Assembly: GCA_014905635.1 (NCBI GenBank)
Contig: JABVCE010000022.1
Span: forward strand, 248,001 to 312,000
Length of the DNA stretch: 64,000 nt
DNA from: Scenedesmus sp. PABB004
Lineage: Eukaryota
Direction of reading: 5' to 3'
Part shown: in pieces, positions 1,489-59,853 of the stretch
Position numbering within the stretch: the first letter of the stretch is position 1
How the letters are laid out: each line of letters begins with the position of its first letter
Notes under the pieces: model-generated
Told to the model about the DNA's origin: nothing
Database searches by the model: none
Seen by the model: only the letters and a program-made list of their open reading frames with translations
Program-made: the position numbers and the translations under genes

Positions 1489-3463
1489 ATGGGCGCCCGG
1501 GCCTGCTGCGGGGCAGCGGCGGGGCCGGCGGGCGCCCTGGGTCTGCTGCTGTGCCTCCTGTGCCTCCTGCCCTCGCCCGCGGCAGGCGGCGCGGCGGCGG
1601 CAGCGGCGGGGGTGGAGGCCGCGCTGAAGGCCGACGCGGCGGCGCTCGCGCCCTGGCTTGTGGCGCTGCGCCGCGAGCTCCACGCCGCGCCGGAGCTCAT
1701 GTTTGACCTCCCCGCCACGTCGGCACGCGTGCGCGCGGCGCTGGAGGAGCTGGGCATCCCCGTGGAGGGGCCGTACGCGACGAGCGGCCTCGTCGGCCGG
1801 CTCGGGCGCGGCGCGCCGGTCGTGGCGCTGCGCGCCGACATGGACGCGCTGCCCGTGCACGAGCCGCCGGGGCTGCCGTTCCGCAGCAAGAACGAGGGCG
1901 TCATGCACGCCTGCGGCCACGACGGTGCGGCCGCGCAGCGCCGGCCGCCGCCGCGCCCGCCGCCGCCGGACCCGCCCGGCGACGCCCGCCCGCCCGCCGG
2001 GCGCGCGCGCCCGCCCGCCAGCCCATATGACGATGCTGCTGGGCGCGGCGAAGCTGCTCAAGGCGCGCGAGGCGAGCCTGAAGGGCACGGTGCTGCTCGT
2101 GTTCCAGCCGGCCGAGGAGGGCGGCGCCGGCGCGGACGTGATGATCCGCGCCGGCGCCATCGACGGCGCGGACGCCGCGTTCGGCATGCACGTGCTGCCC
2201 AGCATCCCGACGGGGCAGCTCGCGCTGCGGGCGGGCACGCTCATGGCCGGGGTGCGGCACGCGCCGCCGCCCGGCAACCACGCCGCGCTGCGGGGGGCCA
2301 CGGCAGCGAGCGCGCCGCAGCCGCCCGCCGCCCCACGCCCCGCCGCGCCGTCGCCCCGCCGCCCTGCCGCCGGCAGTCGCTGACGTTCAAGTTCACCGTC
2401 ACGGGGCGCGGCGGCCACGCGGCGCTGCCGCACCTCAACATCGACCCCGTGCCCGCCGCGGCGGCGCTCATCCAGGCGCTGCAGGTGCGCGGCGCCGGTC
2501 GGCGGGCGCCTGCACGCGCGGCGCTGCGCCCGACCCGCCGCACGCCGCGCGCCGCCGCCGCCGGTGGGCAGGTGCTCGTGTCGCGCGAGACGTCGCCGCT
2601 GGGCAGCGCGGTGCTGAGCGTCACGCAGCTGCAGGCGCGGCCGCGGCCGCGGGCGCGCCCGCCCTGCGCGCGCGGCCGCCGCGCCCGCCCCGCGCGCGCC
2701 GCCGCGCCCGCCCACGCCCGCGCGCCGTCCGCCGGCCGCAGGGGAGCGACGCCGACAACATCATCCCCGACGTCGTCACGCTGCGCGGCACGCTGCGCGC
2801 GCTGACGCACGAGCACATGGAGTTTATGCGCCGCCGCATCGAGGAGGTCGTGCCCGCCGCGGTCGGCGCATACCAGTGCAACGGCACCGTCGACTGGCAG
2901 CTCGGCCACCACCCCTACTACCCGCCCACGGTGCGCGGCGCTTGCAGGACGCTTGCAGGACGCGCGCGCGCGTGCTCGCAGGACGCTCGCAGGACGCGCG
3001 CGCGCGGCTCGCACGACGCGCGCAGGACGCGCGCGGCGCTGACGCGGCCGCCCGCCCGGCGCAGGTCAACGACCCGGCGGCCGCGGCGCTCGCGCGCGAG
3101 GCGGCGGCCGCGGTGCTCGGCGCCGACAACGTGAGCGCCGCGCCGCGCCCGGCGCCTCGGCGCGCGCCGCGCACCGCGGCGCGCGAACCACGCCGCCGCG
3201 CGGCGCCGCAGGTCCTCGACACGGAGCCGATCATGCCGGCCGAGGACTTTGCGTTTTTCACGCGCGCGGTGCCGTCGTCGTTCATGTTCATCGGCATCCG
3301 CAACGAGTCGGTCGGCGCGACCGCCAACCTGCACAGCCCCGCGTTCGCGCTCGACGAGGGCGTGCTGCCGCTCGGCGCAGCGGTGCACGCGAACCTCGCG
3401 CTGCGCTTCCTCGACGGCGGCCTCCCGGGCGGCGGCGGCGGCGGCGCCAGGGATGAGCTGTGA
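1489..3463 (+). CDS. IAA-amino acid hydrolase ILR1-like M20 amidohydrolase, ER-resident, 7 exons
   Basis: Signal peptide; motifs RRELHAAPEL, ALRADMDALP, MHACGHD|AH, FQPAEEGG, GRGGHAA, AEDFAFF, LHSP; C-terminal RDEL. Confidence 0.92.
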
Positions 3464-3748
3464 GGGCGGCGGCGGCGGGTGACGCTGTCGCGCGGCGTGC
3501 CCGCTGCGCGGACCGCGCTTCAGCGTTGTGCCCCAGCGCGGCCGCGCGGCGCCGCGCGGTGCACACCCGTCAGCCCCATTGTGCTGGCAGCCCCACTGCA
3601 GCCAGCTCGCACAGGCTCCCAGCACACGCACCGCCAGCAGCAGCCCGGCGTCGCTGCCAAGCGCCGCCGAGCCGCGCGAGCGCCGCCGCCCGAGGTGCAC
3701 CGCCCTTCGATCGTGGGGCCCCGCCTGCTGGCCTCTGCGGGCCGTGGC

Positions 3749-6700
3749 ATGGCCCTGGCGGCCGCGGCTGGCCCCACCCCCCGGCACTGCCTGCGCACAG
3801 CGGCGCGCCTGACCGGCCTGCGGGGTCGCTACGCGCAGCCCGGGTCGCCCGCAACCCGCCCGACGTGGCAGCCGAGCGCCGGCGGCACTCCGCAGCCCGG
3901 CGTCGCCCGCGCGGCGAGCAGCAGCGGCAGCGGCCCCGCCGGCGCGGCGCCGCCCCTGCTCGGCGGGATGGAGCACACCGTCCCCGGCGCGGCGGTGCGC
4001 GACACCATCGCGCTCACGCCCGAGGAGCGGGCGCTGTTCGACACGCTGCTCGCGGCGGCGCGCTTTGCGGGCGGCGGCACGGTGCTGCGCGCCGCGGGCG
4101 GCTGGGTGCGCGACAAGCTGCTGGGCAGGGAGTCCAAGGACATCGACATCGCGCTGGACAACATGCTCGGCAAGGACTTTGCCGACAAGGCGCGGCGCCG
4201 GCGCCGGCGCGCGCGGCGGGTGCCAGGCGGGCCGGCGCTGCCCGAGCCGCGGCGCCGCCGGCGGGCAGGCGGGCCGACGACGACGGCGCCGCCCTGCGCC
4301 CACGCGCCGTGCCGCGGCGCGCGCCGCGCGCAGGTGAACGAGTACCTCGCGGCGCAGGGGCGCGAGACGCGCAGCGCGGCGGTGATCCACAGCAACCCCG
4401 ACCAGTCGAAGCACCTCGAGACCGCGCGCATGCGCGTCGACGGGCTCTGGGTCGACCTCGTCAACCTGCGCAGCGAGAGCTACGCCGACGGCAGCCGCAT
4501 CCCAACGATGGAGTTTGGCACGCCGCTGCAGGACGCGATGCGCCGGTGCGCGCCGGCGCCGGCGCTTTGGCGGCGCCGGCTGGCAGCGCGCGCGCGCGCA
4601 CCCGCGCGCAAGCGACTCAGCCCAGCGCGCCCGCGCGCGCGTGGGCGGCGCTGCGCAGCGACTTCACCATCAACAGCCTGTTCTACAACCTCAACGCGGG
4701 CGCGGTCGAGGACCTCACCGGCACGGGGCTCGACGACCTGCGCGCGGGGCGCCTGCGCACGCCGCTGCCGCCGCACGAGACGTTCATGGACGGTGCGGCG
4801 CATGCGACAGCGGTGGCAACGGCGGCAGCGCGGCGGCGGCGGCAGCGCGGCGGCGGCGGCAGCGCGGCGGCGGCGGCGCGGCGCAGCGGCGGCGGCAGCG
4901 GCAGTGCAGCGGCGGGCGCGGGCGGCAGTGCAGCGGCGCGGGCGGTGCGGGCAACGCGGGCGGCAGTGCAGCGGCGCGGGCGGTGCGGGCGGCGCGGGCG
5001 GCAGTGCAGCGGCGCGGGCGGTGCGGGCGGCGCAGGTCGCGCGGGCGGCGGCCGTTGCGGGCGCGGCTGACGGCTCAGCGACGGGGGGTGCGCCGCCGCC
5101 GCCGCCCGTCGCGCCGCGCAGACCCGCTGCGCGTGCTGCGCGCGGTGCGCTTTGCGACGCGCTTTGGCTTCGCGCCCGACCAGGCCATCCTGACGGCGGC
5201 CGCCAGCGATGAGGTGCGGCGCCGGTCGCGTGTGTTTGCTCGCGTGTGTTTGCGCGTGGTTTCCGGTTTGTTGCGCCACGTGCGCGCTCGTTCCCCCGGT
5301 TCCCGCGCAACCGCGACCGCCGCACGCGTGGCCCGCCGCCGCCGCGCCGCCGCTCACGGCGCCGGCGCGGCGCCAGCCTCGCCGCCTGCCTTGGCCGCGT
5401 CCGCGTCCGCGCCGCCCGGCTTGGCCGCGTCGGCCGCGCCGGCCGCCACGCCGGGCGGCACGGTGACCTCGCGGTAAAGCAGCAGGTAGGCCATGTGCCA
5501 GTCGCCGCCGCCGTTGAGGGCGAGCACGTCCTCTGCGGTCTTGACCGTCAGCTCGTCGTCGTCAAACAGCACCCAGCTGCCGTCGGCCTGCTTCACCCAC
5601 GCGACGTAGTGCCCCGAGTCGGCGCTGCGCCCCTTGTGCGTCAGCACGCCCGACAGCTCGTACCGCCCTGCGCGGTTGGGGGCGGGGGCGGAGCGGGGGC
5701 GGGGCAGGGTCGCGGTCGCCCGCGGGGCTGGGCCTGGGCGCCGCACCGCCGCGGCGCGGCCGTCGCTGCACGCGCGCGCGCGGCGCACCCGTCGGTGCGA
5801 CCGCCGCGCCGCTCGACGTGCCCGGCGCGCTGGCGGCCGCGTCCGCCATCTCCACGTCGGCGCCCGAGCTGCTCGCGCCGGCGTCGCCGCCGAGCGCCGG
5901 GGCGGGCTTGGGGCCGTCCTCGGTCTTCAGCTGCTTGGCGGTGCGCTTCTCCTGCGCGCGCACGTCGCATCGCCGGCAGCGGGTGGGCGCCACGGCTGCC
6001 GCGCCCGCGCGCTGCCGCCGCCGCCGCCGCCGCGCGCTGCTGCTGCCGCACCAGCGCGAGCTTGTCCTGGTAGTCCTTCAGCGCCGCGCGCGGCCCCGCG
6101 AGCTGCGCCTGCAGCTCGGGGGTGCAAAAATCGTAGGCGTCAAACTCGAGCGGGAACGTGACCTGCGCCGCGGCGCGCGCGCGGGGTGGGCGGCGCGCGG
6201 CGCGGCCGCGCCGCGCGGGCAGCACACGTGCGGCACACGCTCAGCGCGGGGCAGCGCCTTGTCCCGCGCGGTCACCTTGCGCAGGATCTTGGCCTTTTGC
6301 TGCACGTCTGCCTTGTAGAAGAAGCGCACCATCTGCACCGTGAGGTAGGGCGGCAGGCCCGCGAGCTTGGCGCCGCCCTTGAACAGCACCAGCTTGTCTG
6401 CGCCGCCGGCGTGCAGGGCGGGCGGGCGGGCGGGCGGGGCAGGCGGGCGTGGGCGGGGCAGGCGGGCGTGGGCGGGGCCCCGCCGCGCGGCGGGGCACGG
6501 CGCGGCCGTCTGCGGCGCGGCGCGGCGCGGCGGCGGGGCCCGCGCACCCGCGACGGCGCTGTTCTTCTCGCGGTCCTCCACCAGCCCCAGCGCGACGCCC
6601 TGGTGGAGGTAGTTGACGTCCACGCTGATGTTGCACTTGACCGAGTACGTGGTCGACGCCTCCTGCGCGCACAACGCCGCGCGCGCGCGGGGGCAGGCGG

Positions 6701-9262
6701 GCGACCGGGGCGGGGCGGCAGCGGGGTCAGGCGGGGAGGGCGGGCGGGGCGGCCGCCGCGCTGGTGCTGCTGCTGGCCGGCTGCGCCCCCCGTGGCTGGC
6801 CCGCACCTCAAACTCCTCGCCCGTCTCCTCGCACTTGAGCTTGGTCAGCAGCTTCACGCCAAACAGCTTGTCCACGAGCGGCGCGCCGCCGGCGTCCTGC
6901 GGCGGCGGCGGCGGCGGCGCGCTCGCGCCCTGCGCCGCCCGCCCGCCGGGGCCCGCGCGCGGCAGGGGCCCGGGCCGGGGCTCGCGGGTGCGCGCGCCGC
7001 GCACCTTGAGCTGCTCCTTGAGCGTGTACATGACCTGCGTCCAGCACTCCTCCGCGTCCTGCTGCATGTACAGGCCCTCGTTGGTCTGCTGCGCAAACTG
7101 GGGGAAGCGCTGCCGCAGCGTGAGCAGGAACTTGAACGGCGGGAACGCCTCGCCGCCGCGGGAGAGGTCGGCGAAGAGCTCGCGCGTCGCCGCGACGAGC
7201 TTGGCGCCGGGGTCGGCGGGCGGCGCGCCGGGCGGCGCGGCGCCGCCGAGCAGCGCCGCGCGCAGGCCCGCGACGGAGTAGAGGCACTGCAGCGTGGAGT
7301 TCATGTAGCAGGTGTTGCCCAGGTTCTTGAGCCCCGCGCCGTACGCGCGCGTCTCGAGCGTCTGCTGCTCAGCCTCTGGCAGGTCCTCCACGAACTGCGG
7401 CGCGTTGGCGGGCGCCTCCACGGGCGCGGCGTCGGCGGAGCCCATCATCATGATCGTCATGCCCGCCTTGGGCGCGGCGCGGCCCCACTCGTCGTCCTTG
7501 AGCTGCGCGCCCTTGATCAGCACGCGCTGCCGCTCGGGCGGGACGCCGCTGAGCGTGAACAGCTGGCTCTTGAACACCAGGGGGGGCTGGGAGACGTCCA
7601 GCTCGATGTCGCTGAACGTCTCCTTGCCCCATTTCACGTTGACGAGCATGGCTGCGGCGCAACCGCCAAACTGTCGCGCCCACCGGGCGCCGCGCGGGCT
7701 GCGGGGCCGCGCGGTGGCCTGCGGGACGCCGGCCTCGCCGCGACGGGGGGCCGAGAGGGGGCCGGGGCGAGGGCGCGAATGAGGCGAGGCCGCTGCTGCT
7801 CGGCCGCCGAGGGCGCGCACGGGGCTGGGGCGCGGGCGAGTGGGCCGCCGGGACGGACTGGGGGGCGCCCCGCCGATCGCTCGGGCACGCATGCGCCGGC
7901 GGCGGTTCCAGGGCGCGGGCGCTGAGCCCCGCGCGCTGCGCCGCCGCCGCTGCCACGCAGGTGCGCGCCGCCCTCGGCTCCAAGATCAGCCGCGAGCGCA
8001 TCGGCACGGAGCTGGAGGGCATGTTTGGCGGTAAGGCCGCGGCGCGGCGCGGCGGTGCCGCCGCGCAGCGCGTGCGCCGAGGCCCTCCGCGCCCCGCCCG
8101 TGCAGGCTCGTCGCCCTCCGCGTCGGTGCGCCTGCTGCAGCAGCTGTCGCTGTTCGGCCAGGTCTTTGCGCCGCCGCCGGCGCTCGCTGAGACGCTCGGC
8201 CGCGACTGGGGCGCGCCGTGCGTGGAGGTGATGGCCGCCGCGGAGGCGCTCCTCGGTGCGCTGGACCTGCAGGTGCGCGTGCGCGTGCGTCGCGCGCGCC
8301 CGCATGCCCCGCCTGGCAGCGCGCCGGCGCCGCGGCCCCGCCGCAGCCCACGCGCGCCGCGCGCCGCGCAGCTGCCCGAGGACGAGCGGCGCCTGCTGCT
8401 GCTGGCGGCGCTGCTGCTGCCGCTGCGCCGGCTCTCGGTCGCCGGCAAGGGCGGCAAGCCCGCGCCGCTGAGCGGCCACATCATCCGTGAGAGCCTCAAG
8501 TGGCGCGTCAGGGAGGTGGACGGCGTGGCGGCCCTGCACGCGCACGTGGCCGACCTGGCCGCGGTGCACCAGGCCGTCGTCGCGGGCGGCGGCGCCGCTG
8601 GCGCTGAGGCGCCGCCAGACGAGGCGCGCGTGCGGCTCGGCCGCACCATCCGGCAGCTCAAGGGGCAGTGGCGGCTCGGCGCGGTGCTGGTGCCGCTGCT
8701 GCAGCTGCCGGCCGCGGCGCCGCTGGGCGTGGAGCCCGGCAGCGGCGAGGCCGCCGCCGGCGCCGGCGCGGCGCGCGGCGGCAGCGGCGGTGGCGGCAGC
8801 GACGGCGGCGCGGGCGCCGAGCGCGCGCTGCGGGAGCGCGTCGACGCCGTGCAGGCCCTGCTGTCGGCGGCGGCGGGCTTTGGGCTGGAGGACTGCTGGC
8901 AGTGGAAGCCGCTGCTGGACGGCAAGCAGGTGCGGCGGCGCGCGGGCTGCGCGCCCGCGCGGTGCGGCGTGCGGCCAGGGCCGGGCGCTGCTGGCGCAGC
9001 GCGCGCGGTGCGGCGTGGCCGGCCAGGGGCGTTTTGCGGGCCGTGCGGCGGCGCCGACCCCGCCCCACCCCCGCGAGCGCAGCTGGTGGAGCTGCTGGCG
9101 GTGCCCAAGGGCCCCGCGCTGGGCGCGCTGACGGCGGCCGTGATGGACTGGCAGCTCGCGCACCCGGGCGGCACGCGCGACGAGTGCGCCGCGCACGTCA
9201 AGGCCGCCTACGAGAGCGGCGCGATCGCCGTGCCCGCCGGCGGCGGCGGCGGCCGCAAGTGA
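3749..9262 (+). CDS. CCA1: CCA tRNA nucleotidyltransferase (class II), 8 exons; intron 4 (5214-7960) contains another gene
   Basis: Motifs LRAAGGWVRDKLLG, DIDIALD, NPDQSKHLETA, VDLVNLRSESY, RRDFTINSLFYN, D|DPLRVLRAVRF, KISRERIGTEL and KPLLDGK. The start may be ATG 3749 or 3968. Confidence 0.92.
4901..5033. repeat. Intronic minisatellite with a 38-bp unit (GCAGTGCAGCGGCGCGGGCGGTGCGGGC...)
   Basis: GCAGTGCAGCGGCG starts at 4901, 4925, 4963 and 5001. Confidence 0.8.
5354..7649 (-). CDS. UBP6: Ubiquitin C-terminal hydrolase 6 (UBP6/USP14, proteasome-associated), 7 exons, nested antisense in the CCA gene intron
   Basis: N-terminal UBL (MLVNVKWGKE...FKSQLFTLSGVPPERQ), Cys box GLKNLGNTCYMNSTLQCL, QQDAEECW, His box LTHKGRSADSGHYVAWVK, and GGGDWHMAYLLLY. 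Confidence 0.95.
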
Positions 9263-20857: not shown

Positions 20858-21840
20858 CGCTCGGCCGCCTCGCGCACGGGGCGCGCGCGCGCGCATGCTG
20901 CCGCCGCGGCACGCGCGCGCGCGCGCCGCGCCGCCGCCGCACCTGCGCATCGCCGCTGTGAGCGCGCGCACGCGGCCAAACACAGCCTCGACCGTCTCGG
21001 CCGAGCGCATCGTGCCGACCTCCGTGGCAAACAGCCCCGCCCTAAGCTCTGCGCGGCGGGGCGGCGCGCGTGCGCGGGGCGGGGCTGGCGCGGCCGCCAC
21101 CCCGCTGCCGCGCCGCGTGCCGCGCCGCGTGCCGCGGCCCGCCGCACCCGCGGTGTCAGACACGCGGATCGGCGCGCCGTTGCGCGTCGCGCCGCGGCCC
21201 GCCGCCGCGGCAAAGGTCTCGCGCAGCAGCGGCGCGTGCACGACGCCCACGACCGGCTCGCGGCGCACGCAGAGGCCGACGCTCACGCAGCTGAAGGGAT
21301 AGCCATGCACAAAGTTGGTGGTGCCGTCCAGCGGGTCGACCTGGGTTTTGCGGTTGAGGCTTAGGGGGCCAAGGCACCTAAACGCAGGCAGCCGTCGGCC
21401 CGCGGGGCACCTCGCGCCGCCCCCCTCCCCGCCCCCAGGACGCAGCGCGCACCATCCAGGTCGGCTCGTCGGTCAGCTGCCCCTGCCCGCCCGCCTCGGC
21501 CGCCGACTCCTCGCCAATGAACTTGTGCGCCGGGAACGCGGCCGCGAGCGCCGCACGGATCACCTGCGCGCGCCGCGCGCCGCGCGGGACGGGCAGTCGG
21601 CGCCGCCGCCCGCTCGTGGCGCCCAGCGCGCGCGGCCAGCGCCGCCGGCCAGCCCGTCGTAGCGGCGCGCGGGCGCGCCTCCTCGCAGCGCTTGTCGGTG
21701 TCGGTCACGAGGTCGGCGTGGCTGCTCTTGACCTCCACGCCGCGCGCGCTGCCCCAGGCCTGCTCGATGATCGCGCCCGCGGCCTGGGCGGCCTCCAGGG
21801 CCACCGCCAGGCAGCGGTCCAGGTCCAGGTTGCCCGCCAT
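20427..21840 (-). CDS. Inositol monophosphatase (IMPase/VTC4-like), about 6 exons; C-terminal end uncertain
   Basis: DLVTDTDKRCEE, HKFIGEES, LTDEPTWM|VDPLDGTTNFVHGYP, GSCAMNL and YEIGFGGCWDVAA|G. The stop at 20427 assumes one missing G near 20445. Confidence 0.9.
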
Positions 21841-32915: not shown

Positions 32916-33892
32916 TCACAGCGCCATCTCCGCCTGCAGCGCCTCCAGTTCCAGCTCCTCCGCCGTCTTGGCCGGCCGCGCCGCGACCTTGCCCGCGGGC
33001 ACGCTCGGCAGGCCCTGCGCGGGCGCCTTGCCTGCGGGCGGCGCGCGGCGCGGCGCGGCGCGGCTCGGCGGCACGCTCGGGCGCGCCCCGCCGTCGCGCC
33101 CCCGCCGCCGCGCCGCCGCCGCGCCCTTGCCGCCGCCGCCGCCGCAGGCGCGCACCCGCGGGCACGGGCGCCGGCTCGAGCAGCTGGTTGTCCAGCTCCT
33201 CCGCCTCCAGCTCGGCGAGCTCCGCCTCGAGGTCATCCATCTCCATGTCGGCAAAGCCGCCGACTGGCTGGCTGATGGCCTCGTTGATGACCCGCATCTG
33301 CTCCCCGACCTCCTGGATCTCCTCCAGCGTCGTGTCGATGTTCTCGATCTTCATCTCCTGCAAAAGGCGACGACGCGCCGCGGGCGGGGCGGGGCGGGTG
33401 GGGCGAGAGGTGGCGGCGGCGCGCGCTGCAGCAGCGGCGGCGCGCCGCGGCGGCGCGGCGCGCGCGGGCCCCGCGGGCCCGGCGCGGCGTGGCGTGCGGC
33501 GCGCGGCGCCGGCGCGCCTGCATGGTCTTCTTCTGCGCCTTGGCCGCGTCCTGCATGGCGCCGAGGACGCCGATGGTCGTCTGCTGCTCCTCCAGCATGT
33601 TGCGCTGCTCCAGCACGCGGCTGATGAGCGCGTCCATGCGCTCTAGCTGCTGCTCGAACATTTTCTTCTTCTTCAGGCACATCAGCGCCTGGCTCTTCTT
33701 CTTTTGCCGCGTGAACTCGCGGGCCTTCTCCATCTCGTCGCCGATGCGCTTCTCCAGCAGCAGCTTCTTCTTCTCCAGCTGCTCCTCGCGCTCCGCCAGG
33801 CTCTGCATGGCGTTGATGGTCTGGTTGGCCGCGCTGCTGGCGCCGGGGGCGGCCTTGGGGCCGCCCCCCGCGCCGAACAGCTTCTTGAACAT
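32916..33892 (-). CDS. SNF7: ESCRT-III subunit SNF7/VPS32 (CHMP4), 3 exons
   Basis: MFKKLFG..., KKKSQALMCLKKKKMFEQQL, INEAISQPVG, DDLEAELAELEAEELD, and C-terminal EELELEALQAEMAL. Confidence 0.93.
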
Positions 33893-34337: not shown

Positions 34338-35352
34338 ATGGCGTCGGCGCCGGGCGTGCCGCTGCAGGGCGGCGACCCCGGCAGCGTCGGCGACGCCGCG
34401 GTGTTTGGCGTCATCACCGTCAGCGACCGCGCGAGCGGCGGCGTCTACAAGGACCTCAGCGGGCCCGCGATCCTGCAGGCGCGCCCGCGCCCGCGCTGGC
34501 CTGCGAGCGCCGCGCGCTGGCTCAGCCGCTGCCGCCGCCGCCGCCGCCGCCGCACGGCGCGCTCGCCCACCGTCCCGTGCCCCGCTGCAGTTCTTCCACG
34601 ACGCCATCGAGAGCCCCTGGGCCGCGCGGTACGTGGTCGTGCCGGACGAGCAGCCGCTGATTGAGCAGGCGATCAAGGACATGGTGCGGCGTGCGGCACG
34701 CGGCAGCTGCGGCGCGTGGCGGCACGCACCGGCACGCGCCGGCACGCGGCGGCCTCGCCGCCCCACCGCTGGCGGCGACTGCGCCGGCGGCGGCGCCGAC
34801 AGCAGCCGCCGCCGCCGCCGCCCCGCCGCCGCCGCCGCGGCGCAGGCCGACGCCCAGGGCTGCTGCCTCGTCGTGACCACGGGCGGCACGGGGCCCGCGC
34901 CGCGCGACGTGACGCCCGAGGCGACCGAGGCGGTGTGCTCGCGCATGCTGCCCGGCTATGGCGAGCAGATGCGCGCAGTGAGCCTCAAGTATGTGCCCAC
35001 CGCGGTGCTGTCGCGCCAGACCGCGGGTGCGCGCGCGCCGCGGCCCGCCCGGCCGCCAGCGCCGCCGCCTCGCCGCGCGGCCGCGGGCGGGCGCCACGCG
35101 GCCGCGCCCGCCGCGAGCGCCGGGGCCCGCGCGCGGCGCGGCGCTGCAGGCATCCGGGGGCGCACGCTCGTCATCAACCTGCCCGGCAAGCCCAAGTCGA
35201 TTCGGGAGACGTTTGACGAGGTCTTCCGGTCCATTCCCTACTGCATCCAGCTCATGGGCGGGCCCTACGTGCAGACGGTGGCCGCGGTGGTGCCGGCGTT
35301 CCGTCCCCCCGCAGACATGCGCGCCGCGCGGCCCGCGCCCGGCGCCGAGTGA
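34338..35352 (+). CDS. CNX1G: Molybdopterin adenylyltransferase (stand-alone Cnx1 G-domain / MogA), 4 exons
   Basis: VITVSDRASGGVYKDLSGPAI, VVPDE, TTGGTGPAPRDVTPEAT, LSRQTA|GIRGRTLVINLPGKPKSIRE. Confidence 0.93.
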
Positions 35353-35796: not shown

Positions 35797-37350
35797 ATGA
35801 GCGGCCACCGGACGCCCTGGCTGGCGTCCCTGCTGCTCGTTTTGGTCGCGACTGCGCTTGTGAGCGCGCAGGAGCAGGTGCAGGACCTGGCGGAGCTCGT
35901 GCAGCAGGTGCACGAGGGGCGCCCGCCCTCGCTCGGCCCCGCAGCGGCCGCGGGCGCCAACCACACGTGCGACCCGGCATCCAATCACACATGCGTCGTT
36001 CGCACGACACACGCGTTTGCGTGCGGCGACGGCCTGAGCTGCAGCGGCTGGCTGCACACGCCCGCCGAGGCCGCGTCGGCGGCGCCGCGGCCTGTGATCG
36101 TCATGGCTCACGGCCTGGGCGGCGACAAGAGCGCCCTGGAGCGCTACGCGGACGCGTTTGTCGGCGCCGGCTTCGCGGTGTTCTCGTTTGACTATCGCTA
36201 CTGGGGCGGCAGCCAGGGCGAGCCGCGCCGCTGGGTCGTGCCGGACGCGCAGGTGGAGGACTGGCTCTCGGCCGTCGCGTACGTGCAGGGCCTGGCCGGC
36301 AGCGTGGACCCGCGCCGGCTGAGCCTGTGGGGCACCTCCTTTGCCGGCGGGCACGTCATCACCGTCGCGGCAAAGCTCGGCGCCGGCGCGGTCAAGAGCG
36401 TCGTTTCGCAGGCGCGGCGCGCGCGCTGCCGGGGCGGCGCCCGCGGGCGGCGATGCCCGGCGCAGCGACGCGCGACGCGCGCCCCGCGCGCCGCGCAGGT
36501 GCCGCACCTCGACGGCCGGCTGGCCAGCGCGCTGAGCGCGCTGCACCGCGGCGCGCTGGGCAACGCCGTGCTCGCGGTGGCCAGCCTCGCGGACGCCAAG
36601 GCGGGCGCCAAGGGCGCTGAGAACCTCTACGTGCCCCTGGCAAGCCGCCGCGCGGCGCGCGGCGCGGGGCGCGGGCCCGCGCGCGCGCGGCGCGCGCTTG
36701 CTCAGCGCGCCGCGCTGCACCGCCCGCCGCCGCCGCGCCAGGCGGGCCCGCGGGGCAGCCTGGCCCTGATGCAGCTGAGCGACGACGAGCTCGAGGCGTA
36801 CGGCGAATACAAGGGCCTGTCGCCCAGCCAGGCCGGCAACGAGACGGTCCTGGTGCGCGCGCGTGCCCGGGCGGCGCCGCGAGACCGCGCGGGGGCGCCA
36901 CGGGCGCCGACACCGCCGACGCGAGCCCGCGCCGGCGCCGCGCGCACGACGCGCGCCGCAGGGCGACAGCTGGCGGCACTACCTGACCCGTGCGAGCCTG
37001 GCGGGATCGCTGAGCGCGTCGCCGTACAGCCCCATCAACTACGTGCACGGCGTGAAGGCGCCGCTGCTCATCGTGGCCGGTGCGCCGCGGCGCCGCGGCC
37101 GGCCGGCGCGCGCGCCGGCGCCGGCGCCGGCGCGCGAGCCGCCGCGCGCTCGCTCGCCGCGCCCGCCCGCGGCCGCGCAGGCACCAAGGACGGGCTCTGC
37201 CCCTTTGCCGCGGCCAAGCTGGCCGCCGCGAAGGCACCCAACGCCACGCTGCTCGCGCTGCCGGCGCTGCACTTTGAGATCTACCTGCACCCAATGTTTG
37301 ACCAGGCGCTCGCCGCCGAGGTGGCGTTCCTGCGCAGCAACGGCATGTGA
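35797..37350 (+). CDS. Secreted alpha/beta-fold hydrolase (bacterial AidA/peptidase S15-like subfamily), 5 exons
   Basis: Signal peptide; VIVMAHGLGG, FDYRYWGGSQGEPR, nucleophile elbow WGTSFAGGHV, Asp in GTKDGLC and His in LHFEIY. Confidence 0.85.
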   Translation: MSGHRTPWLASLLLVLVATALVSAQEQVQDLAELVQQVHEGRPPSLGPAAAAGANHTCDPASNHTCVVRTTHAFACGDGLSCSGWLHTPAEAASAAPRPVIVMAHGLGGDKSALERYADAFVGAGFAVFSFDYRYWGGSQGEPRRWVVPDAQVEDWLSAVAYVQGLAGSVDPRRLSLWGTSFAGGHVITVAAKLGAGAVKSVVSQARRARCRGGARGRRCPAQRRATRAPRAAQVPHLDGRLASALSALHRGALGNAVLAVASLADAKAGAKGAENLYVPLASRRAARGAGRGPARARRALAQRAALHRPPPPRQAGPRGSLALMQLSDDELEAYGEYKGLSPSQAGNETVLVRARARAAPRDRAGAPRAPTPPTRARAGAARTTRAAGRQLAALPDPCEPGGIAERVAVQPHQLRARREGAAAHRGRCAAAPRPAGARAGAGAGARAAARSLAAPARGRAGTKDGLCPFAAAKLAAAKAPNATLLALPALHFEIYLHPMFDQALAAEVAFLRSNGM

Positions 37351-37757: not shown

Positions 37758-39094
37758 CTACGCCGGCGCCTGCACCGCGCCCGGCCCGTCCTCGCACTGC
37801 ACCGCGGGCGTGCTGAGCAGGCGCTGCTGCTCCTGCACGATGGTGCGCAGCACCTGGTTCTCCCGGTGCAGCGCGACCAGGTCCTGCCCGCGCCCGTCGA
37901 TCTGCGGCGGCGGTGGCGGGCGGTGTCGGCGGCGCCGGCGGCGTCGGTGGTGACGCCTGCGGCAGTGGCGGCAGAGCGCGCCCGCCGGCGGGCCGGCGCC
38001 CGGCCGCCGCCGCGGCGCGCGCCGCGCCGCGCCGAGCCGCGCCTTGTCTCCCATCTCGGCCATGCGGCCTTCCATGGCGGCCATGGAGGCCTTCTGGCGC
38101 GCGCGGAAGCGCCGCTGCGCGAGGCGGTTCTTCTCCTTGACGCGGTCGTGCCGGTTGGCCGCGGCGGCGGCCGCGGCGGCGGCCCCCCCGCGCCGCCCGC
38201 GCCCGCGGACGCCGCCGCGTCGGCGCCGCGCGGGAGGGCGAGCGCCTGCAGCAGCGACGCGTCGCCCGCCTCGCTGAAGTCGCCCGCCGAGTCGCTGCCG
38301 CGCGCCGCCGCGGCGCGGCCGCGCGCGCCGCCGCCGCCGCCGCCGCGCGCGCCGCGGCCGCGGCCGGCACCGGCGCTGCCGCTGTCGTCGCTGCTGTCCT
38401 GCAGCGTCACAAAGTCGTCACGCCCGTAGCCGTAGCTCGGGCCGGAGCGCTTGCGCCGCCCGCCCCCGGGCTTGAGCTTGGGCTGCGCCGCCGCCGCCGC
38501 CGCCGCCGCCGCTGCGACGTACGCCTCGAGATCCTGGTGCTGCTGGTGCTGCTGCAGCTGGTGGAGCTGGGCGTGCTGCTGCTGCATGTACGCGCCGGCG
38601 CCGGCCGCCGCAAAGCCGCCCGCCGCGGCAAAGGCGGCGTCGGTGTGCGCCCCCGGCCCCTGGGCATGCTGCGTCGCGTACGCCTCCGCCGCGAGGTGCG
38701 CCTGCGCCTGCGCGGCCAGGTCCTGCAGCGCCATCGCGCGCAGCGCCTCGGTCTGCGCCGCCTGCGCCGCGGCGGCCGTCTGCGCCGCCGCCTGCGCCGC
38801 GAGCGCGTCTGCCGGCAGCTGCGCGAGCAGTGCCGCGAGCGCCTGCTCCTGCGCCGCCGTCGCCGCCGCGGCGCCGTCGGTGGCGCCGCCGGCGACGTCG
38901 CCGCCGCCGCCGCTGCGAGGCGCGCCGCGCGCGGGCGGCGCGTGGGCGGGGGCGCGCCATCAGCGGCGGCGCGCCGCTGCGTGCCAGCCGCCGCGCGGCG
39001 GCTGCGCCCCACCGCACCCGGCCGCGGCCGCCAGCACGGAGGCCCACTCCGGCGCCAGCTGCACCAGGCGCATGAGCTCCTCCTCCACCTCCAT
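37758..39094 (-). CDS. bZIP-like transcription factor, 3 exons; apparent frameshift near 38185
   Basis: Basic region RVKEKNRLAQRRFRARQK followed by a heptad zipper (M..MEGRMAEMGDK|IDGRGQDLVALHRENQVLR). Confidence 0.75.
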
Positions 39095-40341: not shown

Positions 40342-40396
<55 letters not shown>

Positions 40397-45887: not shown

Positions 45888-46157
45888 GCGGGCTGCTGCG
45901 ACGGAGCGGGACGCGAATGGCAGCGCACGCAATTGGAGCGGGGGCCGGCGTTGCAGCGCGTGCCGGCACCGCGCGGCGGCGGGGTGGGGCGCAGCGGCGC
46001 AGCCCTTGGTCGGAGGCGCGGACTCAGGTTCAGCACTCTCCTAGCTCGTCAGGGCAGCGCCCAGCGCAACGGCCGCGGCCGGCCCGCCGCTGCCGCACGC
46101 CGCTGCGCGAGCGGGGATGGCGCAGCCTGGCGGCGCGGGCGACCAGCGCTGGTCGCT

Positions 46158-47981
46158 TCAGAAGAACTCGCCGGCCTCGCTCTCGACGCGCTGCAGGTGC
46201 GCCAGCACGTTGTCCAGCTCCGCCGACTTGGCCTGGCGCCAGACGCGGCGGCGGCGGCGCTGCGGTGAGGCGCCGCAGGCCCCCGCTGCGCAGCAGGCTG
46301 CTCTCGCCGCGCGGCCCTGCTGCAATCAGCTCCGCCGCTGCCCACCTTGACCTGGCCATACTCACGCACGATGCCACCAAACTCCTCCCCCAGCTGCGCG
46401 TACTGCAGCAGCTGCGTCTGGACCTGCGGAGCGGCGGCGGCGAGGCGTCGCGGCGAGAGCGCGCGCGCGCGCGCGCGCGCGCGCGCGCGGGCCTCGCCGC
46501 GCCGCCGCGCCGCCGCGCCGCCGCGCCGCCCGCGCCTGCGCGACTGCGTCGGCGGCCTCCGTCTCGGCGCGCTCCAGCTCGGCCCGGATGGCGTGCAGCG
46601 CCGGCAGGGCCTTTGCGTCGTAAGTGTGGTCGCGCACCTGCAGCTGCATCAGGCGCAGCTTGCTGCGCGGCGGCGGCGGCGGCGGGGCGCGTCGGCGGCG
46701 CGGGCCGGCGCCTGCGCCTGCGTGCGCGGCGCCGGGGCTCGGCGCGCGCTGCATCATCAGCGGCGCGCCTGCTGAGCTGCGTCATCATCGCGTCAAGGTA
46801 CTGCCGGTGCTTCTGCGGCCGCGGCAGCGGCGGCGGGGGCCCGCTGGCATGCGAAGCGCAGCGCAGCGCGGCGCCGCGCCGCGCAGCGCGGCGCGCGCAG
46901 CCCCGCGCCCCGCGCGCGCCTCGTCCAGCGCCGGCTGCTCCAGCAGGATGCACTCGCCCAGCAGCTGCTGCAGCACCTGCGCGTGGCCGGGGCAGCGCCT
47001 CGGCGGTGGCGCTCGCGCCCACTCTCCCCGCTGCCCCCCCCCCCCCCACACCCACGCTGCCGCCGGCGAGCCCGCCCGGCCGGGGCCGCGGTCCCACCTG
47101 CCCGCCCGCCCGCCCGCCCGCCCGGCAGGGGCCGCGGCCGCGCCTGCTGCGTGGCGGCCAGGTCCTCCAGGTAGGCCTGCGCGTGCTCAGCGTAGCGCGC
47201 GAGCTGCTGCCGGCAGCCGCTGCGCAGCGCCGCCAGCGCCGCCCGCTTGCCCTGGATGAGGCTCGCCACGTGCGCCTGCGCCTCGGGGCCTGCGCGCGGG
47301 CGCGGGCGCGGCCGCGGTGGGCGCGGGCGCGGCGCGGGCGGCGCCGCGGAGGCCGGCTGCCCCCGCGCCGCGCCTGCGCCGGGCCCGGCGACCGCCTCCA
47401 CCGCAGCCTGCGCCCGCGCCTCGAGGCGGCGCTCCAGCAGCGGCAGCAGCGGCGTGTGCGCTTTCTGCGCGCCGCGGGCGGCGCGGTCACGGCGCGGGCA
47501 GCGCGGCCGTGGGGCGGCCGCGCAGGCGCGGGCGCAGGCCGTGGCGCCGCACCTGCGCCGCGCGGCGGCTGGGCAGGTGGAGCGCCTTGAGCTGCTGCGG
47601 CGCGACGCCGAGCAGGTGGCGCCGGCTGCCCAGCAGCTGGTCGTCGCCGCGCCCGCCGCCAGCGTCCGCCTGCCCCGCGCCCGCCGGCGGTGCCGGCAGC
47701 GCCAGGCGCTGCGCTGCAAACGCGGCGGCCAGGTGCGCCGCCAGCGAGGCCGCCGCGTCGGCGGGCAGCGGCAGCCCCGCCGCCGCGAGCCGCGCGTCCG
47801 CGCTCGCGCCCGGCGGCGCGGCGGCGTCGCCGTCGAGCAGCGCCGCGCCCGCCTCGGCCGCCAGGTCCTCCAGCTCCGTCAGCAGCGCCGCCTGCTCCAG
47901 GTACGTGCTACGGGCCGCCTCCAGGGCCTCCAGGGCCACCCGCTGGCCCTCGTCGGGCCCCGCCGGCGGCGGCGGCGGCAT
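46158..47981 (-). CDS. Augmin/HAUS complex subunit 4 (AUG4/HAUS4-like), 8 exons
   Basis: Coiled-coil protein whose spliced C-terminus KLRLMQLQVRDHTYDAKALPALHAIRAELERAETEA...LLQYAQLGEEFGGIVREY matches the HAUS4 pattern (KLR...TY....ALH.IR..L...Y......F..I.R.Y). Confidence 0.75.
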
Positions 47982-53070: not shown

Positions 53071-54157
53071 ATGGGCGCGGAGGCGCATGCGCAAGGCGGC
53101 GCCGATGGCGCAGCCAAGGTGCGTGCCGCGCGGCGCTGGCTCGGCGGCGGCAGCAGCAGGCGCGCGCTGGTGACATGCCTCGCCCCGCTCGCCCTCGTTG
53201 CGCCTGACGCAGGGCGCGCTCTCGGAAGACTTTCTGATGTACAGCTACAAGGTGGGCACCGCAGCGCGCCTGCGTGGGGCGGGCTGCGGCCGCCGCGCCC
53301 GTGCGATGGCGACCCGCGCCGCTGACGCGCCTCGCCCGGCCCGCAGGTGGCGTTCTGCGCACGCCGTTACCCTCGTGAGTGCACGACAGAGCCTTTGGCA
53401 GATTCGCGGGGGCAGGGGAAGGGCGAACGGGACGCGGGCGATCGAAACGATCCTTACACGCCGTGCTTCGGCGGCTGGCGCGCCGGGACTGGGGTGCTGA
53501 GAGTCGCAGCGCTCTCCTGCTCTGGCGGGCCCGCCGCCCTGAGGCCTGCCGGCCGCCCTCGCGCGCCGCCGCCGCTTGCGCAGACGACTGGGCGAGCTGC
53601 CCCTGCGGCCACAAGGGCGAGCGCGCCGCGCGCCGAGACCCGCGTGTCCACCCCTACGACGCCATCGCTTGCTCCTTCGCCAAGCAGGCACGGCGCGGCG
53701 CCCGGCGGCGCCCGGCGGCGCCCGGCGGCGCCCGGCGCCACCGGGGCTCGTCAGGCTGACGCGGCCGCGCCCGCGCCCGCGCCCGCCCGCCCCGCAGCGC
53801 CAGACCTGCCCCCGCGGCGACGCGTGCACGCACGCGCACAACGTGAGCCCGACACGCGCGGCGCGGCCCCTCCCCTGCCTCCTCCGCAGGAGGGCTCACG
53901 CCGCGCGCCGCGCCGCGCCACGCGCCGCCGCAGCTGTTCGAGTACTGGCTGCACCCGCAGCGCTATCGCACGGAGCTGTGCAGCTTCGGCAGCAACTGCG
54001 AGCGCCCCGTGTGCTTCTTCGCGCACACCATCGACGAGCTGCGCCAGCTGGACCCCGGCCTGCCGCCGGCGGAGACCTGTTGGTCCGCCGGCGCCGCCGT
54101 GTCGCGCGCGCGGCCGGCGGCGGCGCACGGCGCGTGCGCGGTGCAGCAGCCGGCCGG

Positions 54158-54188
<31 letters not shown>

Positions 54189-55022
54189 CAGCAGCAGGCG
54201 CAGCAGCAGCACCCCGCGTACGCACAGCACCACCCAGCGTACGCGCACGGCGGCACGTACATGCCGGCGGCAGTGAGCATGCCGCCGGGTGGAGCCTTCT
54301 ACGTGCCGCAGCTGCCCGGCGGCGTCATGCTGGTGCCCCAGCAGCAGGGCGGCGGCGCGTCGCTGCACCGGCAGCTGCTCATGCTCGGCGGCGGCGGCGG
54401 CGGCTTTGCGCCGCTCTCCGGCCAGCTGCCGCACGCGGGCATGACGGCGGCTGCTGGGCAGCACCTGCTCGCCGGCCTGCCCGCCGCCAGCGCCGGCCCT
54501 GGCGCGCAGCAGCTCGCAGGCGCGGCGTCGCCCACCGCCGGCCTCGGGCCCCTCCCGGGCCTCGCCTGGCACTCGGCCGGGGGCGGGCCGCCGGGGCAGA
54601 GCAAGCTGGGAGCGCTGGGGCAGCCCGGCGGCGCGCTGGGCTGGGGCGGCATGGCGGCGCCCCCGGCGGACGCGATGTCGGACTGCAGCAGCTGGAGCAA
54701 CATCAGCGTGACCACCGACAGCAGCATGGGCCTGGCTTGCACCGCGCTCGGCGGCGCGCTCGGCGGCACGCCGGCGTCGTCGCAGGGGCTGGCGGCGCGC
54801 CCGCTGGGCGCGGTCGGCGCGCCCAGCTCCAGCCCGCTCAGCCCCGTGGCTTATGACGCCTGCGCCCTGGCAGGGCCTGGCCTGGCCAGCTTCACGGCCA
54901 GCAGCGGCAGCAGACTGCACATGGCCCAGCAGGGCGAGCGGCTGGACGGGCTGGTGCCCGCCGGCGCGCTGCCGTACGGGGGGCCCCTCCCGGGCGTGCA
55001 CCTGCGCCAGGGTTTCGTGTGA
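53071..55022 (+). CDS. Plant-type tandem CCCH zinc-finger (RR-TZF) RNA-binding protein, 5 exons
   Basis: [68 protein letters not shown]....[10 protein letters not shown]. Confidence 0.9.
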
Positions 55023-55823: not shown

Positions 55824-57268
55824 TCACTTTGCCGCCGGCGCGCCCGCGCCCGCGCTGCGCGCGAGCTGCTCCGCGAGCTCGCCGCTCGCGGCCATCGCCT
55901 CGACGATGTCGCTGCCGCCGACAAACTCGCCGCCGACGTAGAGCTGCGGGATGGTCGGCCACTGGCTGTACGATTTGATCGCCTCGCGCAGCCCGGGGTT
56001 GTGGAAGTCGTCCAGCACGTTGACGACCTCATAGTCTGGGCAGAAAGGGGGCGGGCGCAGTGCCGGCGGCGGGTGGGCGGGCAGGCGGGTGGCGGCGGTG
56101 CGAGCGCGGGCAGGCGCGGGCGCGGGCGTGGGCGGGCGGGCGGGAGGCGGCGGCGGCGCGCGCGGAGTCGCGGGGCTCACCCGCGCGCGCGTCGTTGAGC
56201 AGCGTCATCATCTTGTGGCTGAACCCGCACTGCGGTGCCGACCGCGTGCCCTTGACAAACGCCACGACCTGCACGCGGCGCGGCGGTGGCGCGCAGCTGC
56301 TGTGGGCGGCGGGCGGCGGGGCCGCGCGCCCTGGCGCGCGCCCGCGCGCGCCCGCCCGGCCTGCACAAACACACGCGCGCGCGCGCGCGCGCGCCCACCT
56401 TGTTTGACTTGACCACCTGGTCGATGAGCGTCTCGATGGGCACGTTGATCGCCTTGCCCGCGGTGAGCTTGATGTCGGCCTTGGGCCGCGCGGCGCGGCT
56501 CTGCCAGCGCTGCTCGCCGGGCAGGTTGCCGGGCGGGACGCCGCCCGTCTCGGCGACTGCGGCGCGCGCGGCGCGGCGTGGGCGCGGCGGCGCGCGGGCG
56601 CGCTGCCAGCCTGCGCCGCGGCGGCCGCCCGTGCCCTGCCAGCCGCCGGCGCGGCGGCCGCCCGCCCGCGCCCCCCTGCTGCCGCCGCGCGGCGCCGCGC
56701 CCGCCCCTGCGCCGCGCCGCTCCGCGCCGCGCCGCGCACTCACGCGCCTCCTCCATCCAGGCCTTCCAGGCGGCCGTCATCTGCTCACGCCCCGCGTCGG
56801 GCATGAGCTCAAACTTGACCGCCTTGGTCAGCTCCGGCACGTCCCGCAGGTGGTTTGAGATGGTCACGTTGATCTGCGCGCGCGCGCCGCCGCGGCTCAG
56901 GGGTTTGGGCTGAGCGCGCGCGCCGCCGCCGCCGCAGCCGTCGCGGCCGCCCGCCCGCCTGCACGCCGCGCCGCGCCGCGCGTGCTGCTGCGGCGGCGCC
57001 GCGCCTTGCGCGTGAGTCCGATGTACTGCACCGCGCCGTCGCCGTCGAGCACAGCGTACAGCGCGGCGGCCTCGGGGAAGGCCGTCAGCTCGCCCTTGTC
57101 CATCACCGGCACCGCGGCCGCGTCCTTGAGCGACGCGGCGGCGCGGCCGGGCGCGGGCGCGGCGCGGGCGCCGCCGCGCAGCGGCGCCACCGCGCCGCGC
57201 CAGCGCGCGGCGCCGGCCGGCCGCGCCGCGGCGCCGCCGAACGGCGCGCGCGCGCTGCGGGCGAGCAT
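55824..57268 (-). CDS. GRXS16: Chloroplast monothiol glutaredoxin S16 (GIY-YIG-like N-domain plus CGFS Grx), 5 exons
   Basis: Transit peptide; [69 protein letters not shown]. Confidence 0.92.
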
Positions 57269-57912
57269 GGCGCGGAGGACGGGGACCTGCGCGGGCGCCT
57301 CTGCGGGTGGCGGCGCGCACGGCGGCGGTCGGCGGCGGCCGGCGGCGCATGGGCGCGTGCAGCGGCGGCCGGCCGCCCGCGCCGGCGCCGCCAGCAGCGC
57401 CAGGCCGGGCCGCAGGGCCGCCGAGCGCCCCCTGATGCAGGGGCGCTCAGTGCGCCGGCCCGCGCGCTCGCCCGAGCGCCAGGGGCGCGCGAATTGGGCG
57501 CCGCCGCCGCACCGCTGCTGCTGCTGCCGTGGCCGCGGGCGCCTGCCTCGCTTCAGCGAACGGCGCAGGGAGACGTCGGCGGCTGGCTGTGGCAGCGGCG
57601 GCGGGCGGTGTTGCGAACGACGCCGCCTTGCGAGTGCGGCGGCGTCACTGGCAGCGGTCACTGGCAGCGGCAGCGCAAGGCGCACAAGAACGCGCCGCCG
57701 CCGCCGGGCGTTTGTCCCGGCCAGCCGGCTGGTCGCTGCGCTGACAGCGTCAGGCCTTCGCTGTCGGGACGGGCGCGCTGAACGCAGCGGGGCCTCTCTC
57801 TCGACCGCGCGCCGCAGCTGCTAGCGCGCCGCACCGCTGCGCGATCGCCGCGGCCGCGGTCCAGCCGCCCCACTCGCCCGCGTATCCAGTAGCCCTGGGC
57901 GCCGGCCGCGTG

Positions 57913-59853
57913 ATGCCGGGGGCGGCGGCGACCGGCGCGGCGCGGCCGCGGCGCTGCGCGGCGGGGCGAGCAGCGCCCGCGCCGCTGCTCGCCGCGGTCG
58001 CCGCCGCCGCGCTCGTCTGCGCGGCCGCCGCCGACGCCGTGGGCCAGGTGGACGACCGGCTGATCGGTGCGCCCCGGGCTGCGGGCGCCGCCGCCGGCGC
58101 GGGCTGCGGGCGCGACCCAGCCAGCGCCCGACCGCGCGCAGGGTGGCTGGGGGAGACGCACGTAAAGCGCGGCGGCGCCGCCGCCGCCGGCGCTGGCCGA
58201 AGCGACGCGCGCGGCCTGCGCGTGCTGTCGTGGGAGCCCCGCATCATGCACTACAGGAAATTCCTCACAGACGGTGCGGCGGGCCGGCCGCCCGGGCGGC
58301 GGGGCGGCGCCGCAACGCTGGCGCCGACCCCTGAGCCCTGCGCCCCGAGCCACCACGCCCTGCGCCCTGTGCCCTGCGCCCTGCGCGCTGCACCCCGAGC
58401 CACCCTGCCCCGAGCCGCCGCGCCGCGCCGCCCAGAGCCACCGCGCCGCGCCGCGCCGCGCAGAGGAGTGTGACTACATCATCGCCCAGGCGCGGCCGCG
58501 CCTGCGCCGCAGCGACGTCGCCGACAGCATGACGGGGCGGCAGAAGGCGCGGCGGCGCGGCGCAGACGCCTCGCCGCGCCGGCCGGGCGGCGCGCGCCGG
58601 GCCGCGTGTGCACGCGCGCGCGGGCTTCACAGCCCGCAGCGCCCATGGGCCGTGGGCGCGCCGCCGCGCGGCCGCCGCGCAGGTGAGCACCGTGCGGACG
58701 AGCAGCGGCATGTTCTTCGAGCGCGGCGGCGACCCGGTCGTGCGGCGCGTGGAGGAGCGCGTGGCGATGGTCACCATGCTCCCGGCGGGGCACGCCGAGG
58801 GCATGCAAGTCCTGCACTACGCCGTCGGGCAGACATACGGTGCGTGCGCCGCCGCGCGTGGCCGGGGCGGGGCTCGCGGGCGGGGCCCGCAGGCGCGGCG
58901 GGCATGCTGACGCCGGCGCCGGGCGCCGCCCGCCACCGCAGAGCCACACCACGACTACTTCAGGTGCGCGCGCGCCCGCCGCGGCCGCGCAGCGTCGGGG
59001 GGCCCGCGCGCCGCGACCGCGCGCCGCGCCCGCCGCGCCGCAGCTTCGAGGGCCGCGACGCCAATGGCGGCAACCGCCTCGCGACGGTTCTGATGTACTT
59101 GGCCGCGCCGACGTCGGGCGGCGAGACGGTGTTCCCGCGCGTGCCGCGCGCGCCGGAGCAGACGCTAGAGAACGGGTGGAGCAACTGCTCGCTGCAGGCG
59201 CGCCGCGTCGCGCGCCGCGCCGCGCGCCGCGGGCCGCCCCGCCGCCTTGCCGCCGCGGCGCGAGCGGGCCGCGCGTCACGCGCCGCGGGGCCGCGCGTCG
59301 CGCGCCGCGAGCCGCGCCGCGGGCCCGCCCAGGGCCTCGCCGTCCGGCCGGCCAAGGGCGACGCCACGATCTTCTGGAGCATCCGCCCCGACGGCACGTT
59401 CGACCCCGCCTCCCTGCACGGCAGCTGCGCCGTTATCGCCGGCGACAAGTGGAGCGCGACGAGTGCGCGCGCGCGCTGCCGGCGCCGCCGCGCACGCTGC
59501 CGGCGCCGCCGCGCACGCCCACCGTGCACGCCCGCGCCCGCCGCCGAGCGCCGCGCCCGCCGCGCGGCTGGCGCGCAGAGTGGATCCACGTCGCGCACTT
59601 TGCCACCGCGGGCGAGGCGCCGAAGGAGGTCAAGCGCGTGATCTACGCGCCGCCGCCGCCGCCGCTGCCGGCGTGGTGCCGCGACGACAACGTGGGCTGC
59701 GCGATGTGGGCCGAGAGCGGCGAGTGCGAGCACAACCCGGGGTACATGGTCGGCACGCCGGCCGCGCCGGGCGCGTGCCTCGCCTCCTGCGCGCGCTGCG
59801 ACCTCGTGCCGCCGGCCAAGCGCGGCGGGGGCCGCCCGCCGGCGGCGGCGTGA
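57913..59853 (+). CDS. Prolyl 4-hydroxylase (2OG-Fe(II)) with a C-terminal ShKT domain, 8 exons
   Basis: VLSWEPRI...FLT, RTSSGMF, E.MQVLHY..GQ.Y..HHDYF, GGNRLATVLMYL...GGETVFP, SLHGSC.VI.GDKWSAT.WIH; ShKT CRDDNVGCAMWAESGECEHNPGYM...CLASC. Confidence 0.93.

Follow-up and report, generated by a model that had tools for sequence, protein, structure and literature searches.

A 64,000-nucleotide (nt) stretch of the genome of the chlorophyte Scenedesmus sp. PABB004 (contig JABVCE010000022.1, positions 248,001 to 312,000; hereafter the window, with positions counted from its first letter) contains 17 sites that are best explained as ordinary U2-type spliceosomal introns with a GC donor, which would account for about 15% of the window's introns, possibly more. 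We regard this reading as probable (roughly 0.8), and propose that such donors arise under the pressure of extreme GC content and are tolerated where the remainder of the donor provides a strong context. GC-AG introns constitute about 1% of the introns of plants and animals. The GC content of the window is 80% overall and 76-82% along its length, reaching 96% at the third codon positions of its Pfam-matched segments and 88% in the interiors of 77 clear GT introns (introns as a whole being about 88-90% GC); a published comparison gives the whole genome as 39.8 Mb, 78.5% GC and 7,092 genes (PMC12571836). Three proteins of the window each have a 100% identical NCBI counterpart from PABB004. The 17 introns, with a caret marking the border between exon and intron, are as follows.

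2635..2741, + strand: M20 peptidase gene, 107 nt, phase 0, CAG^GCGCGG...CGCAG^G
4190..4333, + strand: CCA-adding/PolyA_pol gene, 144 nt (a multiple of 3), AAG^GCGCGG
21564..21678, - strand: inositol monophosphatase gene, 115 nt, phase 0, GAG^GCGCGC
33358..33517, - strand: Snf7/VPS32 gene, 160 nt, phase 0, CAG^GCGCGC
34479..34590, + strand: MoCF/mog gene, 112 nt, phase 0, CAG^GCGCGC
36412..36498, + strand: alpha/beta-hydrolase gene, 87 nt (a multiple of 3), CAG^GCGCGG
36640..36741, + strand: alpha/beta-hydrolase gene, 102 nt (a multiple of 3), CTG^GCAAGC
37902..38042, - strand: bZIP gene, 141 nt (a multiple of 3), AAG^GCGCGG, weaker support
46424..46535, - strand: HAUS4 gene, 112 nt, CAG^GCGCGG
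46663..46768, - strand: HAUS4 gene, 106 nt, phase 2, CAG^GCGCGC
46813..46919, - strand: HAUS4 gene, 107 nt, GAG^GCGCGC
46977..47143, - strand: HAUS4 gene, 167 nt, CAG^GCGCGG
47290..47373, - strand: HAUS4 gene, 84 nt (a multiple of 3), phase 1, CAG^GCGCGG, weaker support
53688..53797, + strand: CCCH zinc-finger gene, 110 nt, CAG^GCACGG, weaker support
56874..57004, - strand: GRXS16-like gene (N-terminal domain and glutaredoxin), 131 nt, AAG^GCGCGG
58547..58682, + strand: prolyl 4-hydroxylase gene, 136 nt, AAG^GCGCGG
59198..59332, + strand: prolyl 4-hydroxylase gene, 135 nt (a multiple of 3), CAG^GCGCGC

An earlier note on this DNA had placed GC donors at these positions, and GC is present at +1 and +2 in all 17. 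Its description of their surroundings is equally accurate: 16 directly follow an exonic AG, the only exception being 36640, and 15 read GCGCG (36640 has GCAAG and 53688 GCACG), mirroring the dominant GT donor GTGCG, as is apparent from the consensus G^GTGCG(G/C)...CGCAG^G of the 77 clear GT introns, which are 65-367 nt long. Every one of the 17 donors is followed by an AG acceptor 84-167 nt downstream. U12-type donors have a rigid ATCC-type motif at +3 to +6; the donors found here read GCGCG(G/C), GCAAGC or GCACGG without any such motif, and hence are not of that type. The share of roughly 15% put forward earlier is also reproduced, as 17 verified GC introns against 99-105 predicted GT introns amount to about 14-15%. 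A further 13-26 predicted GC introns, unverified and for the most part weak in context, were left out of this count.

Six-frame Pfam scans showed that the window is densely packed with intron-rich eukaryotic genes, encoding an M20 peptidase, a CCA-adding enzyme, a UCH protease, a kinase, an inositol monophosphatase, Snf7, MoCF/mog, an alpha/beta hydrolase, a bZIP protein, CWC25, HAUS4, a prolyl 4-hydroxylase, a glutaredoxin and an SBP-domain protein. When joined at the GC junction, the exons at 14 of the 17 sites align without a gap to a Pfam profile, a solved structure or homologous proteins; the exceptions are 47373, 53688 and 38042. In the M20 peptidase the exon upstream ends at position 41 of the M20_dimer profile, the exon at 2572-2634 (21 amino acids, aa) covers 42-62 and the next exon continues from 63; the closest in-frame GT to 2635 would remove 5 aa and scores -5.0 on the core of our donor position weight matrix (PWM). 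In the CCA-adding enzyme, aa 41-71 of the 74 in exon A correspond to PolyA_pol profile positions 2-35 and aa 6-70 of exon B to 44-93, and extrapolation to the exon ends places the last residue of exon A at 38 and the first of exon B at 39. This profile has nothing corresponding to the 48 codons of the 4190 intron, and the sole in-frame GT would add 10 aa. The Inositol_P and Snf7 profiles run without a break across the 21678 junction (51 to 52) and the 33517 junction (99 to 100) respectively; the GT alternative at 21678 would cost 10 aa of the conserved segment DLVTDTDKRCEE, and the stretch KKTM(Q/A)^EMKIENID around 33517 is unbroken in the annotated protein P0001 and seven more homologs. Likewise, the motif DLSGPAIL(Q/R/G) at the 34479 junction of the MoCF gene is encoded unbroken and without a gap in five relatives known from metagenome contigs (L001, L003, L004, L006 and L007).

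The two introns of the alpha/beta-hydrolase gene were compared using a profile of nine homologs, against which the model with both GC introns removed scores 255.5 bits. Replacing the GC donor by a GT alternative lowers this to 242.8 for 36412, to 240.7 for 36640 (GT at 36631) and to 228.0 for both. The junctions fall within VVSQVPHLD (36412), which is unbroken in the closest homologs P0034 and P0038, and YVPL(A/G)GP..SLAIMQL (36640), unbroken in P0034, P0038 and P0044. An alignment of HAUS4 with eight homologs is free of gap columns at the 47143, 46919, 46768 and 46535 junctions, with six of the eight homologs spanning the junction at 46535 and seven at 46768; the Pfam HAUS4 profile also runs unbroken from 194 to 195 across 46535. 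For 57004 and the first prolyl 4-hydroxylase intron, matches to solved structures were extrapolated to the exon ends. In the GRXS16-like protein, aa 44-87 of 88 match residues 5-45 of PDB chain 2lwf_A (a weak match, E=0.65) and aa 3-42 of the next exon match residues 49-88 (E=1e-5), placing the end of exon A at residue 46 and the start of exon B at 47. At 58547, aa 1-25 of 27 match residues 33-57 of 2jig_A and aa 2-52 of the next exon match 61-111, giving an exon A that ends at residue 59 and an exon B that starts at 60. Reading through 59198 yields two aligned blocks in 2jig_A, the first ending at residue 167 and the second starting at 169, between which a 45-codon block is mostly unmatched; the spliced product is gapless.

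The three other junctions are less strongly supported. At 38042 the bZIP_1 profile reaches the end of exon A and, in our reading of the translation, the heptad register M-M-I-L-N-V-L carries on past the junction; the nearest 60 nt contain no in-frame GT. The HAUS4 alignment is variable around 47373, with five gap columns, and here too no in-frame GT lies within 60 nt. Splicing at 53688 would restore across the junction the C-x8-C-x5-C-x3-H spacing of the zinc finger, and the closest in-frame GT would remove 14 aa. All three sites are chosen by the gene parser described below, those at 38042 and 53688 at all priors.

For this purpose-written Viterbi parser, 1,381 Pfam-matched codons served to train the codon model, and the 77 clear GT introns only to train the donor and acceptor weight matrices. 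Its donor matrix skips +2, GC donors are charged through a prior, and a shadow state accommodates antisense coding. At every GC prior from 0.5 down to 0.001 it picks 16 of the 17 claimed sites, the sole miss being 36640, in place of which it takes a GC at 36669; homology shows 36640 to be the correct donor. It also erred in the inositol monophosphatase gene, where the intron at 21341-21452 (- strand), which has the ordinary form ATG^GTGCGC...CCCAG^G and whose acceptor tract is A-rich, was called with a GC donor at 21450. Because of these two errors only verified GC sites were counted; GC dinucleotides abound throughout this DNA, and the number of other GC introns called by the parser varies with the prior from 13 to 36, these being unverified and mostly in weak context. 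In a decoy control, predicted donors with a core PWM score of at least 3 accounted for 19 of 43 with GC, in comparison to 3 of 31 with GG and 2 of 21 with GA, and the total score gain over a parse restricted to GT was +383 for GC, +216 for GG and +94 for GA. Two other versions of the parser were discarded: an unweighted GT/GC version, which returned 193 GC introns among 261 and was regarded as noise, and one lacking the antisense-coding state, which split genes too much.

The earlier note had further held that these donors do not compensate for the C at +2, and this part of its claim does not stand: measured against the organism's own consensus, G^GTGCG, they do. An AG precedes 16 of the 17 GC donors but only 33 of the 99 GT donors (p=2e-6), the core PWM score is 4.74 for the GC donors versus 3.44 for the GT donors (p=3e-5), and G occupies both -1 and +5 in all 17 GC donors. 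In the context AG^GYGCG there are 16 GC and 25 GT donors, and 3 and 39 respectively where A is lacking at -2 (p=0.0006). Of the 45 occurrences of AGGTGCG, 25 serve as donors, compared with 16 of 68 for AGGCGCG and 3 of 981 for [C/G/T]GGCGCG. The GC introns are also predominantly in phase 0 (15/17, as against 48/99 GT introns, p=0.003), probably because an AG is needed and A is common only at the second codon position. Together these features suggest that the base pair lost at +2 would be paid for by those at -2 and -1. With regard to the canonical 5' end of U1 small nuclear RNA (snRNA), ACUUACCUG, both classes of donors have the same median number of matches to the complementary textbook consensus, namely 5.5 of 9. 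Hence, given compensation and an equal predicted complementarity to U1, a relaxed or variant U1 or U6 is not required.

Such a change in the machinery had nevertheless been suggested: variant U1 or U6 snRNAs (the canonical U6 box being ACAGAGA), or U1C/LUC7-type factors, might read GC and GT alike in this lineage. A share of about 15%, far above the usual figure of about 1%, speaks in its favor, as does the poor match that the local GTGCG already makes to the textbook GTAAGT. Nonetheless, we consider it very improbable, as a spliceosome indifferent to the second letter is hard to reconcile with the strict dependence on AG, with a context that is stronger at GC than at GT donors, as for a normal U1 minus the +2 pair, with the equal complementarity of both classes to the textbook U1 end, or with the same GC-AG effect in other GC-rich algae. 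An Rfam search of the window found no snRNA. A gene at 39513-41448 (+ strand) encodes Cir_N and CWC25 domains, the latter being those of a pre-mRNA splicing factor, and is uninformative on the choice of the 5' splice site.

We accordingly return to ordinary U2-type introns under GC pressure, a cause that the earlier note had raised as a possibility and that we rate as likely, given the composition of the window and its intron interiors, the GT found in a less GC-rich relative and the published cases of GC-rich algae. Under this model GC-biased mutation or gene conversion would push the T at +2 towards C, and the C would be tolerated only in donors that otherwise pair well with U1, positions -2 and -1 being A and G, and +3 to +5 reading G-C-G, as in the local consensus. 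GC donors would thus be nearly confined to sites that follow an xAG codon, and hence to phase 0. Orthologous introns, whose comparison the earlier note had recommended, were informative in this respect: the Snf7 position of 33517 reads CAG^GTGCGC in L006/L007, which have 72% GC, and at the position of 46919 the open reading frame fragments of five relatives continue beyond the exon into a Val codon (GTN), so that their donors there would be GT. GT is therefore found or implied at both intron-bearing orthologous positions that were compared; the change at +2 probably went from T to C.

At 34479 and 47143 no intron is present in any of the sampled relatives (five fragments are unbroken at 47143), and the GT introns compared in the MoCF and Snf7 genes are shared with relatives. 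As two of the four comparable GC-AG positions are thus intronless in relatives, albeit in small numbers, one could envisage that the GC-AG introns of this lineage are disproportionately young, having been born with a GC donor from stop-free, GC-rich, low-complexity insertions flanked by AG^GC...AG instead of by decay of old GT donors from T to C; we consider this unlikely. An all-against-all blastn comparison of 116 introns recovered no distinct introner-like family, its 2679 hits having shifting offsets between GC-rich low-complexity tracts, and the GC introns have no bias towards lengths that are multiples of three (6 of 17, with about 5.7 expected). The metagenome contig L003 (72% GC) contains apparently intron-free copies of the Snf7 and MoCF genes and matches five more genes of the window (g05, g06, g09, g10 and g20), indicating partial synteny with an intron-poor lineage.

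Nine of the GC-AG junctions lie in three proteins of the public annotation (P0001, P0032 and P0031), and at seven of these, namely those of Snf7 and MoCF and the five of HAUS4 (P0031), the annotation uses exactly the GC-AG junction. The other two, 36412 and 36640, are read through, in keeping with the expectation of the earlier note that predictors would mis-annotate genes of this genome; they are translated in P0032 as Arg/Ala-rich insertions. P0032 ('mog', 569 aa; 34338-37350, + strand) is a fusion of the MoCF gene with the adjoining alpha/beta-hydrolase gene. Similarly, P0031 (456 aa; 45032-48000, - strand) combines HAUS4 with a small protein encoded downstream (about 45.0-45.9 kb), which belongs to a family of its own with homologs of 70-170 aa that match only residues 329-456 of P0031. 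The reading-through in P0032 could be taken to mean that at some or all of the sites splicing does not occur at GC, and that either a weak nearby GT is used or the segments are retained as low-complexity coding insertions. Six of the 17 segments are indeed stop-free multiples of three, an in-frame GT lies within 60 nt of 14 sites, and the gene models can also be obtained from a GT-only parse. However, every in-frame GT alternative would alter the protein by at least 3 aa and these alternatives have poor core PWM scores (-11.3 to +1.4, versus 2.3 to 5.5 for the GC sites), while at the 14 sites with homology support the alignment is gapless with the GC junction only. Moreover, reading through 36412 and 36640 gives 215.6 bits against the hydrolase profile, 40 bits below the doubly spliced model. 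Among all 17 segments, 11 would break the frame if read through, since their lengths are not multiples of three. We therefore consider the absence of splicing at GC very improbable. That a true T at +2 has been misread as C in sequencing or assembly is extremely improbable, as we found nothing in its support (metagenome contigs of a relative at about 97% identity spanned no donor among the 8 pieces listed of 1255), 17 independent T-to-C errors at one functional position, mostly after AG, would be unlike sequencing errors, and the acceptors and lengths of the GC introns are normal.

Several considerations weigh against reading the 17 sites as ordinary GC-AG introns. Their removal from mRNA is a prediction based on coding signal and homology only, and an unmodified U1 is likewise presumed. 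The parser is not independent of the logic of the earlier note, as both rest on coding signal, and it made the errors at 36640 and in the inositol monophosphatase gene; the public annotation may have been built from ab initio signal of a similar nature. Support is weak for the junctions at 47373, 53688 and 38042, and the figure of 15% is that of a single 64-kb window and not of the genome. Finally, AGGCGCG occurs 14 times and AGGTGCG six times unused inside predicted exons, AGGCGCG being in the sense orientation and in some cases within conserved exons of the M20 peptidase and prolyl 4-hydroxylase genes, and a GC donor is therefore not specified by its context alone.

Three further candidate GC-AG introns, which are predicted by the parser and unconfirmed by homology, are the following.

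6163-6257, - strand: candidate GC-AG intron, AAG^GCGCTG
54520-54599, + strand: candidate GC-AG intron, CAG^GCGCGG
7784-7911, + strand: candidate GC-AG intron, GAG^GCGAGG

Low-complexity tracts are found inside several introns, long simple ones among them: the 46535 intron contains a (GC)n tract some 36 nt long (46440-46480, - strand) and the 47143 intron a run of some 14 G (47035-47055, - strand), while (GCC)n tracts occur in others.

The introns described here resemble the U2-type GC-AG introns of plants and animals in their GC...AG borders, ordinary length and acceptor, and stronger match in the remainder of the donor. They differ from them in their share, about 15% rather than about 1%, and in their consensus, AG^G-GCG rather than AG^GCAAGT, a classic form approached only by 36640 (GCAAG). 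Closer parallels are known from other algae. In the haptophyte Emiliania huxleyi, for which published shares are about 56-60%, 56% of 241 curated junctions are GC-AG, nine were confirmed by reverse-transcription polymerase chain reaction, and the authors ascribed the excess to the GC content of the genome and noted that predictors mis-call its genes (PMC4028052). As described there, this GC-rich alga shares with PABB004 the common GC donors and the retention of AG at the acceptor; GC donors are, however, the majority in the haptophyte at 65% genome GC, whereas in the chlorophyte, known from sequence alone, they reach about 15% at about 79-80%. Among pelagophytes, a preprint that cites 0.3-2% as the usual share gives 14-17% GC-AG among predicted introns for Aureococcus anophagefferens and 14% for Pelagomonas calceolata, again ascribed to high GC (bioRxiv 10.1101/2024.10.30.620910). 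By that account these algae have nearly the same share as the window at a high GC content, although they are stramenopiles with 0.2-0.9 introns per gene, unlike the several per gene seen here. The literature searched, with subscription journals outside its coverage, yielded no report of a GC-AG excess in green algae. The association of such an excess with high GC is thus already known from a haptophyte and pelagophytes.

The link between GC content and GC-AG introns would hence extend to a chlorophyte whose nuclear genome is among the most GC-rich recorded. As GC donors occur nearly only after AG, that is, after xAG codons in phase 0, the balance between mutation and selection at +2 would become measurable. 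There are also consequences for annotation: in the public gene set of PABB004 at least two GC-AG introns are translated as coding sequence and neighboring genes are fused, and since such introns are read through, the protein sets derived from this and similar genomes would hold false low-complexity insertions.

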